This document shows, one piece after another, positions 38,077-42,928 of a stretch of 64,000 bases of DNA. Origin of the DNA: Escherichia phage IrisVonRoten. Every line of letters begins with the position of its first letter. Positions within the stretch are counted from its first letter, which is position 1. The DNA lies in the sequence record MZ501075. One strand, given 5' to 3'. The position numbers and the translations under genes are program-made. Below the pieces are notes generated by a model that searched no databases, had not been told where the DNA came from, and saw nothing but the letters and a program-made list of their open reading frames with translations.

Positions 38077-39596
38077 ATATCGCTGGCCTGTTCACCTGTT
38101 GAATTTTCAGCTTTGTCTTTCTTAGCACGTTTAGATTGAGCCGGCTTATCCTTCTCAATAGGGATAACGAACTCAGCTTCCATTTGAGATATATCTTCCA
38201 TTGCTAGGTTGGTAGTGTTATCCATCCGCAGGGTTTCCCAGTTCATTTTAGGCATAAACTTCACGCTATCAGAAGAACGGGTCTTAACGAAGTCAAACAT
38301 AATAGCACCTTGACCATTATCAGCTTTTGCAGCATTAAGATTAGCAGCCATGTCTGCGGAATCAAGAATCCCCTTTGACATACGTGTTCTACCATCTTGA
38401 TCAATCTGGTAAGGAGCTACACCAGCCACGTTATGCTTCTGGCAGATGGATTTGAAAGACGAGCTAACAACCATCTGTTCTTTCCAGTCGTACATATCAA
38501 TGGTTTTAGAATCTGGAAGTCGGGTTTGGTTAATATAGTCAAGTAAAGCTACTGTAACTTTATCCCCATATCTAGCAACTAATTTATTTAATTCTACGTC
38601 AACTGTTGTAATAGACAGCTCAGGGTCATAAACAATAATCATAGGAGTATGTAGTTCATACCCTTCTATTAGCTTACTTTCCATATCGTAGAAATCACTC
38701 ATCTTAGCCATTGTGTACTGTTTAACGAAGTTATCGAAAAGCTCTTCACCACCGTTAAACATCCTAGCTCTAGTTCTGGCTAATCTCAACAGAGCTGCAC
38801 CTTCTAGAGTATTATTACGCATTGCTAGTGCTGATACACCAGCTAACATGGCTAGATTACGTCTAAATACTTCATGTTCTTTCATCTCAATTGAGAAGTA
38901 TGGAGCAATATCCCCATTCAAATATTGCTGAACCTGTATGTTTGAACAGATAATGGATTTACCAGTACCACGCCAACCACCAAGCAGTAACGTTTCTGTG
39001 CGAGCTAAACCAATTTGAGCGTCGAACTCATTACAAATACCAAGAGCGATTAAGTTCAGTTTGGTATCTTCTTCTCTCTGGAAAATACGCATGTTATCTG
39101 CGTTGAATACTTTTCCAGTATTCGTTACTTTCTCTTCTAATTTTAAGTGAAGGGAGGCAACTCGGTTAAGAATTTCTCCCTGATCCAGCATTGTTAAATC
39201 TTGAAGCACGTCTGTTTCTAGAAGCTTCAGGAATAAATCCTGTGTATACTCGGCCTCTAGGACTTCAAGTGCCTGTTCCATGCTAACTTCTGGAATTTGA
39301 GTGTTAGCTAAAACGACTAGAGCTTGAGAAAGGCGGGCGTTCCTATTAGCCTCAAGCATCAGTGCGTCAATGGACGGCATTGTGTTATATTTTTTATAAT
39401 AATTCTGGACGGCTTGGTAAATTGAGGAGAAAGCGTCACTAAAATGATCTTTATGCAGTTTTGAGAATGTTTCCAATGCTATTTGCTTCTGTTCGGAAGC
39501 TAGAAGCATCTTCAACACTACAGCTTGCACGTTAAACAAGGTCATTCTCCTTTGCACGCTTTCGTGCCTTCTAAATGCAAAAAGGGGAAGGAGCAT
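38073..39596 (-). CDS. replicative DNA helicase, DnaB-like
   Basis: Walker A GGWRGTGKS, RecA-like C-terminal domain; start uncertain (alternative ATG at 39545). Confidence 0.65.
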   Translation of the reverse strand: MLLPLFAFRRHESVQRRMTLFNVQAVVLKMLLASEQKQIALETFSKLHKDHFSDAFSSIYQAVQNYYKKYNTMPSIDALMLEANRNARLSQALVVLANTQIPEVSMEQALEVLEAEYTQDLFLKLLETDVLQDLTMLDQGEILNRVASLHLKLEEKVTNTGKVFNADNMRIFQREEDTKLNLIALGICNEFDAQIGLARTETLLLGGWRGTGKSIICSNIQVQQYLNGDIAPYFSIEMKEHEVFRRNLAMLAGVSALAMRNNTLEGAALLRLARTRARMFNGGEELFDNFVKQYTMAKMSDFYDMESKLIEGYELHTPMIIVYDPELSITTVDVELNKLVARYGDKVTVALLDYINQTRLPDSKTIDMYDWKEQMVVSSSFKSICQKHNVAGVAPYQIDQDGRTRMSKGILDSADMAANLNAAKADNGQGAIMFDFVKTRSSDSVKFMPKMNWETLRMDNTTNLAMEDISQMEAEFVIPIEKDKPAQSKRAKKDKAENSTGEQASDI

Positions 39597-39612
39597 AGCC
39601 CCCTCCCCTTAG
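39580..39612 (-). terminator. putative terminator (minus strand) after D5-like gene
   Basis: minus-sense AAGGGGAGG..CCTTCCCCTT imperfect hairpin followed by TTTTTG. Confidence 0.4.
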
Positions 39613-39627
39613 GTTTAATTTACCAGA

Positions 39628-40395
39628 TTATTCAGCAGCCGCAGCTTTTGCATCCAGTTTAGCACGCTTAGCGGCACCATCATAGTCCTTAGCAACCAGA
39701 CCACGACGAGACAGCATAGATTTAACACCGCGCTCAGACTTACCAGTTTTCTCAGCGATCTCAGCAACAGTCATGTTAGCCAGATCCAGACCTTCTAAAA
39801 GATCTTCACGAGTTTTAGCACTTGAAGTTTCCTGTACCGGCATAGCAGCGATACGACCTTCACGAAGCAGACTCAGAGCTTTACCACGGATCTGCTTGAT
39901 ATTACGACCGAAGTGAGCAGCGATAGCTTCAATAGTAGCTCCAGCAACAACCTGATTAACAAAGTCAGTTTCTTCATCCGGAGTGAAGGAACGAACAGCA
40001 GCAGCTTTTTCGGTCGGCTTAACAGATGCGGTCATTTCCAGACTCAAGATTTTACCCTGTACCTGCTTAGCACCGAACTGACCACCAGCTACAGCAGCAG
40101 CGATTTCAGCATAAGTATACTGACCAGCATGAGCGTTCAGGAAATCAACCAGTTCAGCTTCCTGCTCAGGAGTCCATGGGGATTTCTGTACTTCGTTAGC
40201 TTTCTGTACTTCGAAACCTTCTTTACGCAGCTTAGAGCCAACAGAGCGAGCGGTAACGTCTTTGCCAGTTTCAGCAGCCAGTTCAGCAGCGATAGCAGCT
40301 ACTTGTTCTTGAGAGATTACAGCAACACCCAGAGCAGTGGCTTTTGCTTTCAGAGACTCGGTTACACCTTCTACGTTCCAGTTCAGTTTAGACAT
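39628..40395 (-). CDS. DNA-binding protein with three HTH-like repeats (T5 D5-like)
   Basis: 255 aa; three repeats of pattern E-IAxxxG..........LxxxGL; strongly optimal codon usage. Confidence 0.45.
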   Translation of the reverse strand: MSKLNWNVEGVTESLKAKATALGVAVISQEQVAAIAAELAAETGKDVTARSVGSKLRKEGFEVQKANEVQKSPWTPEQEAELVDFLNAHAGQYTYAEIAAAVAGGQFGAKQVQGKILSLEMTASVKPTEKAAAVRSFTPDEETDFVNQVVAGATIEAIAAHFGRNIKQIRGKALSLLREGRIAAMPVQETSSAKTREDLLEGLDLANMTVAEIAEKTGKSERGVKSMLSRRGLVAKDYDGAAKRAKLDAKAAAAE

Positions 40396-41167
40396 TATTA
40401 TTTTTCTCCAATAGTTCTTTAATCGACAGGATTTCTATCCCATTCGTTTCGGCTTTCTTATAAGATGAGGAAGAACGCTTCGATTCATCCTCACAGATTA
40501 GGTATTTGACGTCTTTGGTAACGGATTTCTTAACCGTATATCCTAGACCTTCTAAATAGTTTGTTGCATCCGTTCTATTTGCAAAATCTTGCAAAGATCC
40601 GGTAATACATACCGTTATTCCGTTTGGTTGGGCTACTAGACCATCAGTGATGATGACCTCAGCTTTAGCACCTTTAATACCAGTTGTGAATTTCCACGGT
40701 AATTCGATAACATCCTTGCCTTGTGGGGAATTTAGCCAGGCTTTATAATTTTCTCCAGCTCTGCCATCAGCTCTCACATCTTGAAAACTGGTGCAATTTT
40801 GGGACAATTTCTTTGCTGCAACCTCTCCGATTAGAGGGATTCCTAAAGAACCGAGAACTGAACCAAAGTCAATGTCTCCGCGAACTTTATTATTTAATTC
40901 GCTAATTAACTTAGCGGCAACCTTGCTACCCACGACTCTAACCAAATCTTCTTCGGTTAGGTAAAATAGTTCTGAAATCTTCGTCAGCTCCAGCTTCTCA
41001 ATAGTTTTTGGGCCAAAGCCCTTTAACTTCATTTTTGTACAGAAGTTCTCAATTAACTTACTTGATTGCGCTGGACAGTTGGACTTATTACGACAGAATA
41101 ATTGTCCGTTGACAAGATCTAGTTTAGAACCACAAGAGGGACATTGTGTTGGAATTTCGATTTTCAT
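40388..41167 (-). CDS. NAD-dependent DNA ligase, C-terminal subunit (Zn-finger/HhH/BRCT part)
   Basis: ~259 aa from ATG 41167; CPSCGSKL..C zinc finger, helix-hairpin-helix segments, C-terminal BRCT-like region. Confidence 0.7.
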   Translation of the reverse strand: MKIEIPTQCPSCGSKLDLVNGQLFCRNKSNCPAQSSKLIENFCTKMKLKGFGPKTIEKLELTKISELFYLTEEDLVRVVGSKVAAKLISELNNKVRGDIDFGSVLGSLGIPLIGEVAAKKLSQNCTSFQDVRADGRAGENYKAWLNSPQGKDVIELPWKFTTGIKGAKAEVIITDGLVAQPNGITVCITGSLQDFANRTDATNYLEGLGYTVKKSVTKDVKYLICEDESKRSSSSYKKAETNGIEILSIKELLEKNNNV

Positions 41168-41197
41168 CAAATTTCTTCCTTATCAATTTATATAAAT

Positions 41198-41226
41198 ATT
41201 ATAGCAAGTATTTAAGCATTTAGCAA
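41198..41226 (-). promoter_or_regulatory. T5 early-type promoter inside the ligase split
   Basis: minus-sense TTGCTA-N17-TATAAT followed by RBS AAGGAAG and the C-terminal ligase subunit start. Confidence 0.5.
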
Positions 41227-41369
41227 CTACAATTTTAACTAACTTTGCTTACCCTCGCCATAACTTTCTATCCCTCAACTGAATGATAATAGTATATACC
41301 TAAGCGGCGAAAATGTCAATAACCACTTTATAATTCCGATATGGTAGATGGGTAGCAAAGGGTTGTGTA

Positions 41370-42344
41370 TTAATCGTATACTCGCTCTACTATGCACGGG
41401 ATTACACCACCAGCACGAATCACTCGAATCTGGCAACCGATCTCTAGATCAAGAGAGTTAATATAATCAACGTTATTAAGAGTCGCTTTAACAATTGTAG
41501 CATCATCAATAATTACCGGTTCGAAATAACCAACTGGAGTTACTTTACCAGAAGCCCCTACCTGCCATTCAACTTTAGTAAGAGTTGTAATCTCGCCTTC
41601 TTCATCCTCTTTAATAGCGAATGCTCCACGAGGGAATTTATTAGTCCAGCCTTCGCGGAAGAATTTGTTGTTGTCATTAATACGAACAACTTTACCGTCC
41701 GTTGGAATCCATTTAAAGAAGGAACGCACATTAACAACTGTTAAGAAGTTCTCATTCTCTAGCCAAAGCATATCTTTTAAATATGCTTCTGTAATACCCA
41801 CAGATTCAGCAGAACATTGGATACCATAAGCAACAAAGATTAAACCACCTTCCCCAATACGTTGTACGAAATCATCGCTATCTTTGAGGTTAATAGCACC
41901 AGAGGCAAAGTTACGTTTATTTTCTACTTCTTTTGTAATTAGAACTTCACCAGTGATTTGAGTAGGTACTTTTTGGGAAATCTTTTTAGGAATGTTCAGC
42001 AATCTTACGTTGCTTGTGACATCATTCCCCAGAATACCATTACCACGAGTTAGTGCTTGAACAAATTCACCGTTAATATATAACAGAGAAATTGCACAAC
42101 CATCTAACTTATCGGTTTCCACCTGACCTAAAGGATTGAAGGGTGGTTTATCACCACGGTTATAGTAAACTTTCTGTAAAGAATACATACGATATAGATG
42201 TGGAATATCACCCTTAGGCCCGATCTCTTCCTCTAACGGGAAGCGTTTTACCAGGCAATCATACTCCTCATCAGAGATTAAAGACATGCCTTGATAATAT
42301 GCTTCTTGACAACGCTTAATAAAGCCTTTTACATTATTCATCAT
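41370..42344 (-). CDS. NAD-dependent DNA ligase, N-terminal adenylation subunit
   Basis: 324 aa; adenylation motif TDKLDGCAISL (KxDG), OB-fold region; ends with stop 199 bp upstream of the C-terminal subunit start. Confidence 0.7.
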   Translation of the reverse strand: MMNNVKGFIKRCQEAYYQGMSLISDEEYDCLVKRFPLEEEIGPKGDIPHLYRMYSLQKVYYNRGDKPPFNPLGQVETDKLDGCAISLLYINGEFVQALTRGNGILGNDVTSNVRLLNIPKKISQKVPTQITGEVLITKEVENKRNFASGAINLKDSDDFVQRIGEGGLIFVAYGIQCSAESVGITEAYLKDMLWLENENFLTVVNVRSFFKWIPTDGKVVRINDNNKFFREGWTNKFPRGAFAIKEDEEGEITTLTKVEWQVGASGKVTPVGYFEPVIIDDATIVKATLNNVDYINSLDLEIGCQIRVIRAGGVIPCIVERVYD

Positions 42345-42552
42345 CGGCGATTTCCATCTTGAGTTCTTTATTATATTGTGTAACCATATCCATCAAATCA
42401 GCAGATTCTTTCAGAAACGCATCTTTGTACACCTTTTGATTTACTGTGCCTATGTTATCCTGATAATTAATGCGTGCTGTGGAAAGTAGATTAAGTTTTG
42501 CTTGAATCTTGGGAAGTGTTACTGTCATTGCCATGATTGATCCTCTTATCAA
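42334..42552 (-). CDS. hypothetical small protein
   Basis: 72-aa ORF with RBS AGAGGA and own upstream promoter. Confidence 0.3.
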   Translation of the reverse strand: MIRGSIMAMTVTLPKIQAKLNLLSTARINYQDNIGTVNQKVYKDAFLKESADLMDMVTQYNKELKMEIADDE

Positions 42553-42563
42553 TTTATATAAAT

Positions 42564-42592
42564 ATTATATAACAAAACTGAGTTGAAAGCAA
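42564..42592 (-). promoter_or_regulatory. T5 early-type promoter
   Basis: minus-sense TTGCTT-N17-TATAAT. Confidence 0.5.
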
Positions 42593-42619
42593 ATACATTT
42601 ATAAAGAAAAAGCCAAGAA

Positions 42620-42928
42620 CTAGGCATTCTTGGCTTTGAGTTCTTCAGCTCGTTTCTGTACTTCATGTAAAACCTCAGATTCGCTAAGAATCTGTGTAAA
42701 CGCATAGAAAAGCTGTGATGTTGTTTCTAGGGTGTAAGGAAAAGAGAAGCCAGATTTCGTTGGAAACCATTCATCATTAATATCAAGAAGCCAGTAACGA
42801 ATACCCATGTATAGATTCCCACGAAATTCAGATACTGTTAATCTTACTTGTTCCCCCTCCTTCTCCCAAAGTATGATGGACTGGTCATCAACGTGTCCTT
42901 CATAGTTTTGATTTACCTGTTCGCTCAT
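42620..42928 (-). CDS. PC4-like ssDNA-binding protein
   Basis: 102 aa; IILWEKEGEQVRLTVSEFRGNLYMGIRYW fits the PC4/YdbC fold pattern; a PC4-like protein has been described in T5 (recalled, not verified here). Confidence 0.45.
   Translation of the reverse strand: MSEQVNQNYEGHVDDQSIILWEKEGEQVRLTVSEFRGNLYMGIRYWLLDINDEWFPTKSGFSFPYTLETTSQLFYAFTQILSESEVLHEVQKRAEELKAKNA

Follow-up and report, generated by a model that had tools for sequence, protein, structure and literature searches.

A DNA ligase encoded by two genes has been in the literature for bacteriophage T5 since 2005 (Wang et al. 2005). The T5 record AY587007.1 carries the genes as dnlj1 and dnlj2 (AAU05253/AAU05254) and already annotates two putative early promoters, T5P36 and T5P37, in the spacer between them. 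The orthologous two-subunit enzyme of Providencia phage PR1 is broken at the same point and has a 192-bp gap with both promoters; it is found in PDB entries 9hu3 and 9i5i (2026), 'PR1 phage heterodimeric DNA ligase in complex with 21-mer nicked DNA', which contain both chains. The titles of these entries cover a heterodimer on nicked DNA, without mention of sealing. Bacterial LigA, in contrast, is one chain of ~670 aa (E. coli 2owo; T. filiformis 1v9p/1dgs). A literature search returned no experiment on the ligase of T5 itself or of Escherichia phage IrisVonRoten, whose ligase locus is analysed here.

A two-gene ligase in IrisVonRoten

Judged by its sequence, the window (the whole 64-kb stretch of IrisVonRoten DNA that was analysed) comes from a T5-like phage. 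In a database comparison the DNA identity of the ligase locus to T5-like phages was 98.1%; 428 phage records span 80% or more of it, and those listed annotate two ligase genes. We therefore consider it highly probable that the locus encodes the two-subunit NAD+-dependent DNA ligase typical of the T5-like phages (family Demerecviridae), and this judgement takes in the proposals on transcription and evolution made below. The split ligase is an already known feature of these phages and not a new discovery; the sequence-only reading of this DNA had not recognised the T5 split ligase of 2005 as the identity of the locus. The T5 genes are the same genes (97-98% amino-acid identity), the T5 spacer is the same 202 nt with two differences (1/35 in the variable part and 1/167 in the core), and the promoters T5P36/T5P37, repeat b and the neighbours D5 and DnaB-like helicase are shared. 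T5 differs in being without orf72: its P35 leader abuts dnlj1, whereas IrisVonRoten has a 72-codon ORF there, a 191-bp difference. The order ligA, ligB, D5, DnaB-like helicase, with a tandem promoter module before ligB, is present in the window. Features are listed in Table 1.

Table 1. Features of the IrisVonRoten ligase locus, in window coordinates.
Feature	Position	Strand	Description
Terminator-like hairpin	42609..42637	-	12-bp stem and T-run; ends the transcription unit of the upstream PC4-like gene
P35-type early promoter	42564..42592	-	TTGCTT-N17-TATAAT, upstream of orf72-ligA
Leader repeat (T5 'repeat b' copy 4 equivalent)	42545..42564	-	last -10 base and initial transcribed region
orf72	42334..42552	-	small gene; phrog_8267, unknown function; stop overlaps ligA start by 11 nt
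ligA	41370..42344	-	324 aa; Ia-like N-terminal helices, nucleotidyltransferase domain with K79, OB fold
Variable spacer start	41335..41369	-	first 35 nt after the ligA stop codon
Hyperconserved spacer core	41168..41334	-	167 nt; tandem-promoter module of ligB
Upstream spacer promoter (T5P36 equivalent)	41291..41319	-	TTGACA-N17-TATACT, 11/12; predicted start near 41284
Downstream spacer promoter (T5P37 equivalent)	41198..41226	-	TTGCTA-N17-TATAAT, 10/12 and extended -10 TG; predicted start near 41191
Leader repeat (T5 'repeat b' copy 5 equivalent)	41179..41198	-	identical to the copy upstream of orf72-ligA
ligB RBS	41175..41181	-	AAGGAAG, 7 nt before the ATG
ligB	40388..41167	-	C4 Zn finger, HhH region, BRCT; matches TIGR00575 positions 388-651
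D5-like DNA-binding/transcription factor gene	39628..40395	-	phrog_323 'transcriptional regulator, D5-like'; annotated D5 in relatives
Strong terminator-like hairpin	39582..39610	-	13-bp stem, 8 GC pairs, T-run; ends the ligB-D5 unit

The sequence-only reading had described the locus as two separate cistrons, one with an adenylation domain carrying KxDG and the other with a Zn finger, HhH and BRCT, and this description was borne out. Both genes lie on the minus strand as separate cistrons in the ORF listing, and together they tile TIGR00575 (652 positions) end to end, the first half reaching position 378 and LigB beginning at 388. Similarly, the two halves tile phrog_3869 (9-381, then 388-654), and matches were found to the dedicated families phrog_3359 (E=1.9e-175) and phrog_3498 (E=7.9e-136). 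Against the NCBIfam LigA equivalog, whose cut-off is 444 bits, the halves score far lower (172 and 108 bits), and where the LigA family has a single polypeptide there are two cistrons here. The phage ligase is a split variant of the LigA family and not a canonical member. It shares domain order and catalytic motifs with bacterial LigA, but is compact (583 aa in total, 324 aa and 259 aa) and split in the OB-Zn linker.

LigA matches the Pfam NAD-ligase adenylation domain (PF01653, E=2.3e-23), followed by an OB domain above cut-off (PF03120, E=3.8e-22). Its KLDG motif is K79-G82 (window 42110-42099) and aligns to E. coli K115. Moreover, E133, D216/G217 and K245 align to E. coli E173, D285/G286 and K314, and R310 and V314/I315 align to R379 and V383/I384. 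The KxDG lysine and motifs III, IIIa, IV and V of the nucleotidyltransferases can all be located, with Arg in place of the motif IV lysine family-wide. Across 46 family members, K79/D81/G82, E133, R144, D216/G217, K245 and R310 do not vary. Two differences count against the assignment: the equivalents of E. coli K290 and R333, essential positions of the bacterial enzyme, are R221, an invariant Arg in the family, and A264. Pfam gave no match to domain Ia for LigA residues 1-69. In this putative Ia region Y16 is invariant, at least 90% of family members keep S24, E27, Y28 and D29, and the residues align weakly to the T. filiformis Ia motif over a non-significant stretch. The AF2 model of LigA (pLDDT 89.5; TM 0.84-0.86 to 9hu3_A/9i5i_A) has two N-terminal helices, at 2-17 and 25-34.

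LigB carries the C4 zinc finger, HhH region and BRCT domain that follow the OB fold in the LigA family. The four zinc-finger cysteines (CPSC...C...C) are present, PF03119 matches over the full length although below cut-off (E=0.0054), the HhH match is weak (HHH_2 at 24.7 bits, just under the cut-off of 27) and the BRCT match is above cut-off (35 bits vs 21.3). The protein is 259 aa from the ATG, the start used in T5, most relatives and the PDB chain, or 260 aa from a TTG at 41170.

The break bisects the OB-Zn linker and lies in the identical place in every relative examined. LigA ends 6-8 residues after GGxIP, as do 135/161 split-type proteins, and LigB starts ~8 residues before CPxC. The 8 + 8 residues around the break match the 16-29-residue linker of the unsplit forms described below.

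The earlier claim that the enzyme must assemble from two polypeptides is supported by the PR1 orthologue, crystallised as a heterodimer, which has 53-55% amino-acid identity to each half (matches to both chains in 9hu3 and 9i5i, E=2.6e-103 and 3.5e-80). In PR1 the heterodimer on nicked DNA is seen structurally; for IrisVonRoten we infer it by extrapolation from an orthologue of this identity. The two proteins would reassemble non-covalently around nicked DNA, with no residues lost at the break. LigA alone probably self-adenylates with NAD+, and LigB may provide the DNA clamp for the later nick-sealing steps. A LigN fragment equivalent to LigA is capable of self-adenylation and not of ligation. 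Such an enzyme would act on Okazaki fragments as well as on the nicks naturally present in T5-type genomes.

The spacer and transcription of the locus

An AT-rich spacer of 199 bp with a TTGCTA-N17-TATAAT promoter and an RBS had been reported between the two genes. The length stands if ligB starts at the TTG, but is 202 bp from the ATG. The base composition was confirmed (GC 0.317 vs 0.38-0.39 in the flanking genes), and both signals are present: the promoter, which the T5 record lists as putative early, is retained throughout the family, and the records of phages Stitch and phiR2-01 mark an RBS at the position corresponding to AAGGAAG. The upstream promoter had been overlooked, and its TTGACA-N17-TATACT is a better match than the promoter reported. 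Klebsiella, Providencia, Pantoea and Vibrio phages retain it, as do metagenomic relatives. Across phages of hosts ranging from Escherichia to Vibrio, the two promoters keep a fixed distance of ~95 bp, and every lineage has an inverted repeat flanking the downstream promoter's -35 box. Within the 3.9 kb scanned, no other minus-strand site matches as well as these two. However, promoter-like matches over this region as a whole showed no enrichment (7 found vs 9.1 expected from shuffles); since this total is not above expectation, the predicted promoters rest on conservation and not on the scan by itself. A literature search found no T5 transcription start sites, and the spacer promoters are sequence predictions. 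The 20-mer leader repeat occurs exactly twice in the 64-kb window, vs 0.04 occurrences expected.

Conservation is very unevenly distributed over the spacer. The first 35 nt show 6-10 differences from Epseptimavirus relatives and appear to behave as unconstrained sequence. The 167-nt core shows 0-1 differences from Stitch, rokbiter and GSW6 and 4 from phiR201, whilst for Stitch, rokbiter and phiR201 the flanking genes diverge at 23-56% of their synonymous sites. The core is conserved more than the neighbouring P35 region and the nonsynonymous sites of the ligase. We infer that the spacer acts as a promoter module for ligB-D5 under strong constraint, rather than being leftover sequence. A further suggestion, that the core is a regulatory node (e.g. 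an operator for D5 self-control) whose need before D5 drove or maintains the ligase fission, we regard as rather improbable. In line with it, the best promoter-like site of the two unsplit relatives closest to the split forms falls within the linker codons. When the unsplit genes as a whole were examined for an internal promoter older than the split, however, the best coding-strand sigma-70-like site was in the linker in only 2/7 (binomial P=0.096). A clustering of sigma-70-like sites 40-190 nt downstream in the other unsplit genes is a post hoc observation.

Other functions for the spacer were considered and rejected. A structured RNA is unsupported, as Rfam searches at E up to 10 gave noise only. 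The P36 leader RNA folds better than shuffles here (z=-3.5) and less so in relatives (z from -0.9 to -2.6), and RNAalifold predicted 0 pairs on 8 divergent P36 leaders, giving neither consensus nor covariation support. A mini-ORF (MARVSKVS) behind a GAGGGA after the upstream promoter is not conserved in Klebsiella, Providencia and Vibrio phages; other small spacer ORFs on either strand are frame-overlap artefacts, and no spacer ORF of at least 20 aa has a family match. A replication origin at the spacer is likewise unsupported, as GC skew turns at ~26 kb and ~54 kb, the places at which gene orientation switches, and shows no turn at 41.2 kb.

Upstream, the P35-type promoter corresponds to the putative early promoter T5P35 in AY587007.1 and is conserved in relatives, although the consensus scan misses it because of a weak -35 box. 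The T5 record also annotates a rho-independent terminator at the place equivalent to the hairpin preceding this promoter. The extra 274 bp of oldekolle-type phages is an additional ORF upstream of ligA and lies outside the spacer. A hairpin scan found no terminator between ligA and ligB. Downstream, the start of the D5 gene overlaps the stop of ligB (ATGTCTAA), and the two genes are therefore expected to be co-transcribed and are probably translationally coupled. We propose that orf72-ligA would be transcribed from the P35-type promoter, reading on without a terminator before ligB, whilst the two tandem sigma-70 early promoters of the spacer would add transcripts of ligB and the overlapping D5 only, which would end at the terminator after D5.

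Unsplit relatives and the origin of the split

The two-gene layout is found in >400 independent phage genomes and in all of the best 120 protein matches, down to 46% identity. Unsplit ligases of 555-586 aa (P0152, P0159, P0171, P0179-P0181 and P0186) occur at the same genomic position in uncultured T5-like phages. A search of relatives for an intact single-ORF ligase or an endonuclease in the gap had been proposed; the former was found, in these uncultured phages, and the latter was absent from the gaps examined. The unsplit ligases (556-586 aa in the comparison) are of similar compact size, share 39-46% identity over the LigA part and share the synteny of ligase, D5-like gene, DnaB, primase and PolA, but consist of one ORF with a 16-29-residue linker and are without the intergenic promoter module. 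Because they hold the same position, the data suggest that the single-chain form is ancestral. The ancestor would have been a compact single-chain ligase, surviving in the uncultured phages, with gene fission at the linker occurring in the lineage leading to known Demerecviridae. The gap may later have become a slot for cargo genes in some lineages: Pantoea phages, Vibrio phages and one metagenomic relative have one to three extra genes in it, and where cargo genes part ligB from ligA the tandem-promoter module stays with ligB. The neighbour-joining tree of split and unsplit forms is poorly resolved and does not settle the number or direction of fission or fusion events.

The sequence-only reading had offered the spacer as the scar of an excised mobile element. 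On this account the domain boundary received a free-standing homing endonuclease gene or a self-splicing intron, which subsequently disappeared. HNH endonucleases abound in T5-like phages, and T5 carries nine (Stitch genome note). Furthermore, an HNH gene lies ~450 bp upstream of ligA in Klebsiella phage vB_Kpn13-P2, and the gap evidently tolerates inserted genes. In T4-like phages, the split NrdA of Aeromonas phage Aeh1 with mobE is such a case of 'genes in pieces', arising by homing-endonuclease insertion; this too is an essential phage enzyme made as two cistrons whose products reassemble, but with an endonuclease gene in the gap where the T5-like ligase has a conserved promoter module. Neither an endonuclease ORF nor a remnant lies between the ligase halves, here or in any of the gaps examined (13 isolate and 3 metagenomic), and the gap genes of relatives, either DprA-like or small unknowns, gave no match to HNH, GIY-YIG or LAGLIDADG families. 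Nor is a group I or II intron indicated: Rfam at E up to 10 gave no intron-like RNA, and the halves are out of frame, each with start or stop signals of its own. Moreover, 167/202 spacer bases are nearly invariant and form a family-wide promoter module, the opposite of a decaying scar. We conclude that the scar is unsupported and a mobile-element origin very unlikely.

An artificial stop from sequencing or assembly error, or one half being decaying debris, had been named as what could undo the split altogether. Additional frameshifts do occur within one half in a few single records (GSW6 and IME178, with three 'ligase' CDS), a sign that errors or recent lesions can arise at this locus, but these records are uninformative on the split. 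The layout and break point are constant over the genomes and protein matches given above, and both halves are under purifying selection, with dN/dS far below 1 (0.01-0.25 for ligA and 0.08-0.24 for ligB). In addition, ligB is out of frame with ligA (an offset of 205 nt, remainder 1 after division by 3), all three spacer frames contain stops across the 202 nt, and the PR1 orthologue was crystallised as two chains. We regard both artefacts as excluded, the chance of either being negligible. Phages do have means of restoring a single polypeptide from an interrupted gene, such as the T4 gene 60 bypass and the td/nrdB introns, and the folding of the P36 leader RNA could be read as a sign of splicing, ribosomal bypass or frameshifting. 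That hairpin is without consensus or covariation, no intron family matches, and the stops in all frames stand in the way; ligB has its own conserved RBS and ATG, whole genes occupy the gap in relatives, and the PDB entries hold separate chains named subunits. A restored chain is thus extremely improbable.

A regulatory split, the other option raised from the sequence, is plausible. In its adaptive form, LigB would differ from LigA in level or timing, or would, besides its part in the ligase, serve other replication proteins as a free HhH/BRCT DNA-binding or docking module; this is compatible with the two-subunit T5-type ligase and not exclusive of it. In its favour, ligB has two dedicated promoters that ligA does not, it is linked to D5 transcriptionally and probably translationally, and its promoter module is conserved beyond the P35 region and ligase nonsynonymous sites and remains attached to ligB despite cargo genes. 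However, the replication module can do without the split, since unsplit relatives share its synteny, and in T5 ligA and ligB share the -10/leader repeat, which favours matched over different expression. We rate an adaptive split as possible but rather unlikely.

In summary, the split ligase belongs to the textbook picture of T5-like phages: hundreds of genomes have it annotated, and its structure has now been solved. The comparisons made here add context, namely the unsplit orthologues in uncultured relatives, the constant break point and the hyperconserved ligB-D5 promoter module, and leave the established picture unchanged. More generally, the T5-like ligase is of interest as a natural case in which an essential enzyme functions as a pair of chains, with the cut at a domain linker.

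Two ligase genes and a probable two-chain enzyme

The ligase of IrisVonRoten is encoded by two consecutive minus-strand ORFs with complementary ligase domains, bearing out the split proposed in the sequence-only reading. The KxDG motif of LigA reads K79-L-D-G. Together the halves tile TIGR00575 (up to position 378, then 388-651 of 652) and phrog_3869 (9-381, then 388-654 of 656) end to end, and each also has a PHROG family of its own. The spacer measures 202 bp when ligB is taken to begin at its ATG (41167), as in T5, most relatives and the PDB chain, and 199 bp when the TTG at 41170 is used instead. Stops occur in all three spacer frames, ligB is not in the frame of ligA, and the GC content is 0.317 in the spacer against 0.38-0.39 in the two genes.

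Features of the ligase locus and its immediate surroundings
Feature	Coordinates	Strand	Description
orf72	42334-42552	minus	72 codons; phrog_8267 (function unknown); between P35 leader and ligA; overlaps ligA start by 11 nt
ligA	41370-42344	minus	324 aa; PF01653 adenylation (E=2.3e-23), PF03120 OB (E=3.8e-22)
Upstream spacer promoter (predicted)	41319..41291	minus	TTGACA-N17-TATACT; 11/12 consensus match
Downstream spacer promoter (predicted)	41226..41198	minus	TTGCTA-N17-TATAAT; extended -10 TG
ligB	40388-41167	minus	259 aa from ATG; BRCT above Pfam cut-off, weak HhH, four-cysteine Zn finger
Terminator-like site	39610..39582	minus	strong; after D5 gene, end of ligB-D5 unit

Identity of the locus to T5-like phages is 98.1%; of 516 matching phage records, 428 span at least 80% of it. 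Every annotated record among the matches listed carries two ligase CDS, often named subunit A and subunit B. The T5 reference (AY587007.1) annotates dnlj1 and dnlj2 and, in the spacer, 'putative early promoter T5P36', 'putative early promoter T5P37' and 'repeat b copy 5', and in later papers ligA and ligB are listed as subunits. The split and the gap promoters have thus both been recorded before, and what IrisVonRoten carries is the split ligase already known from T5-like phages. In the records of GSW6 and IME178 one ligase half is broken again into two CDS, probably through sequencing errors or recent frameshifts. Salmonella phage rokbiter has a ligB with 8 extra codons, and a 32-nt repeat_region is annotated within the gene (970-1001 of that locus). 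An Enterococcus faecalis assembly includes a 723-bp contig with a partial hypothetical protein, 240 aa long, that matches LigA at 100% identity; T5-like phage contamination of that assembly is its most likely source.

The claim that the enzyme must assemble from two polypeptides is supported by structures of an orthologue. PDB entries 9hu3 and 9i5i each hold a 339-aa 'DNA ligase (NAD(+))' chain and a 248-aa 'DNA ligase subunit B' chain, matching the two ORFs with E=2.6e-103 and 3.5e-80, and the LigB protein of Providencia phage PR1/PSTCR5 (Demerecviridae) matches chain B at 100% identity. One entry, released 2026-01-14, is titled 'PR1 phage heterodimeric DNA ligase in complex with 21-mer nicked DNA containing phage nick sequence'; the second, released 2026-02-18, bears the same title but with '(random sequence)'. 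The AlphaFold model of LigA is confident (pLDDT 89.5), with a TM score of 0.84-0.86 to PDB chain A. Since our literature search found no paper on the PR1 structures or T5 ligase biochemistry, we infer heterodimer formation in IrisVonRoten from the PR1 orthologue, at 53-55% identity. A LigN fragment equivalent to LigA shows normal self-adenylation but no ligation without the ZnF-HhH-BRCT part, and a similar division of labour between LigA and LigB is therefore likely.

Alignment to E. coli LigA pairs K79 with K115, E133 with E173, D216/G217 with D285/G286, K245 with K314, R310 with R379 and V314/I315 with V383/I384. Mutagenesis by the Shuman laboratory reportedly found these E. coli residues essential. 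Across 46 family members (47-87% identity) K79, E133, D216/G217, K245, R310 and I315 are invariant, and V314 is absent from the conserved columns. Unlike E. coli LigA, the phage protein has R221 in place of K290, an Arg invariant across the phage family, and A264 in place of R333. Domain Ia of LigA gave no Pfam match; the AlphaFold model has two N-terminal helices, Y16 is invariant, and S24, E27, Y28 and D29 are kept in at least 90% of the family. Both genes are under purifying selection, with dN/dS of 0.01-0.25 for either half (relatives with dS up to ~2). Sequencing error and inactive debris, the two refuting outcomes named in the sequence-only reading, are both excluded.

Spread and origin of the split

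The order ligA, gap, ligB, D5-like and DnaB-like gene is kept in Klebsiella, Providencia, Pantoea and Vibrio phages and in metagenomic contigs. The best 120 database matches to LigA (down to 46% identity) are all 307-337 aa long with adenylation and OB domains only. The break falls at a constant point: of 161 split-type proteins, 135 stop 6-8 residues past the GGxIP motif. An exhaustive profile-free search also recovered compact single-chain relatives of 555-586 aa at 39-46% identity. In these, GGxIP and the first Zn-finger cysteine are 16-29 residues apart; the 8-residue tail of LigA and 8-residue head of LigB likewise make 16, which indicates that the break bisects the OB-Zn linker.

Seven of these unsplit genes sit in the same T5-type replication module, followed by a 240-253-aa gene in the D5 position (with faint Sigma70_r4_2 matches in two), then by DnaB and primase where the contigs reach, with PolA seen in one. 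Their closest isolated-phage relatives are the split Demerecviridae ligases. A neighbour-joining tree, poorly resolved, sets the compact clade apart from bacterial LigA, with unsplit forms mostly basal, two of them nested among split ones, and all isolates in a purely split subclade. The simplest reading of these sequences is a single-chain ancestor and fission, in one or more events, within the T5-like phage lineage.

Conservation and predicted promoters of the spacer

The TTGCTA-N17-TATAAT promoter and RBS AAGGAAG claimed for the gap are both found there, together with an upstream promoter-like sequence that is a better match and had been overlooked. The two are the best minus-strand matches in the 3.9 kb scanned, a scan that overall is not enriched over shuffles. 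Against Epseptimavirus relatives the first 35 nt of the spacer show 6-10 differences and the 167-nt core (41168-41334) 0-1; against phiR2-01 the core shows 4. The flanking genes differ from Stitch, rokbiter and phiR2-01 at 23-56% of synonymous and 2-9% of nonsynonymous sites. The core has 0-1 differences from phages whose synonymous sites are 23-44% different, and is more conserved than the ligase nonsynonymous sites. Conservation is clearly lower in the neighbouring P35 region, where by count about 5 of 87 nt differ from Stitch. The two promoters and their upstream and leader regions may explain most of this conservation, but not that of about 20 nt between them.

Directly upstream of ligB, the Klebsiella, Providencia, Pantoea and Vibrio phages and metagenomic relatives carry the pair TTGACA-N17-TATACT and TTGCTn-N17/18-TATAAT, the two -35 boxes separated by 93-98 bp, and they do so both with and without cargo genes between ligA and ligB. 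Some 26 nt of -10 box and leader (T5 'repeat b') are identical between the downstream spacer promoter and the promoter before orf72-ligA. orf72 is found in most relatives but not in T5 itself, where the P35 promoter with its repeat b directly precedes dnlj1. In oldekolle, phA11 and phC11 a further 273-bp ORF lies just upstream of orf72.

The suggestion that the spacer is the scar of an excised mobile element found no support: none of the extra genes in the relatives' gaps examined is an endonuclease, an Rfam scan of the spacer returned nothing intron-like, and the spacer, judged by its conservation, is not decaying. More distant relatives have between one and three additional genes in the gap, encoding DprA-like proteins, small unknowns and a 73-aa protein of a PHROG family named 'DNA ligase'. 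This last, in Vibrio phage JSF12 (2071-2292 of locus L006), belongs to phrog_13916, has no ligase domain detectable by Pfam and is probably named through guilt by position. A DprA-like recombination-mediator gene recurs beside the split ligase, in the gap in Vibrio phages JSF12 and Javier and just upstream of ligA in Pantoea phage AAS21, and is missing from the IrisVonRoten window.

The spacer contains no credible small ORF, and a mini-ORF behind an SD-like GAGGGA is not conserved. The leader RNA from the upstream promoter (41160-41285, minus strand) is predicted to fold into a long hairpin (z=-3.5), the 3′ arm of which reaches into the downstream promoter; in each divergent relative, some inverted repeat surrounds the -35 box of the latter. 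A conserved hairpin is not supported: the signal is weaker in relatives, and the consensus fold has no pairs and no alignable structure. Considered over the full length of each of 7 unsplit genes, the top promoter-like site falls in the linker codons in 2 (P=0.096, not significant). The two unsplit genes closest to split forms have their best sigma-70-like site, which includes an extended -10 TG, within these codons or just past them (L019 5952-5981, L021 5992-6020); the -10 region of L019, TGCTATAATAT, has the sequence found in the T5 ligB promoter.

Transcription units and significance

A terminator-like site lies upstream of the P35-type promoter and none between ligA and ligB. At ATGTCTAA the stop of ligB and the start of D5 overlap. 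The D5 protein binds DNA, is abundant and is required for late transcription. GC skew does not change at the spacer; its sign flips at ~26000 and ~54000, presumably marking gene-orientation switches between transcription blocks, and ARAGORN found no tRNA genes anywhere in the window.

Our literature search found no transcription-start data. The conservation of the spacer, the family-wide promoter pair and the repeat b leader lead us to read it as a functional module of two predicted, tandem early promoters, which would serve the ligB-D5 unit on top of read-through from ligA; the gap promoter proposed in the sequence-only reading is thereby supported. Two points alone are modestly new: uncultured relatives carry unsplit orthologues, and the putative tandem-promoter module is unusually conserved and persists across the family.
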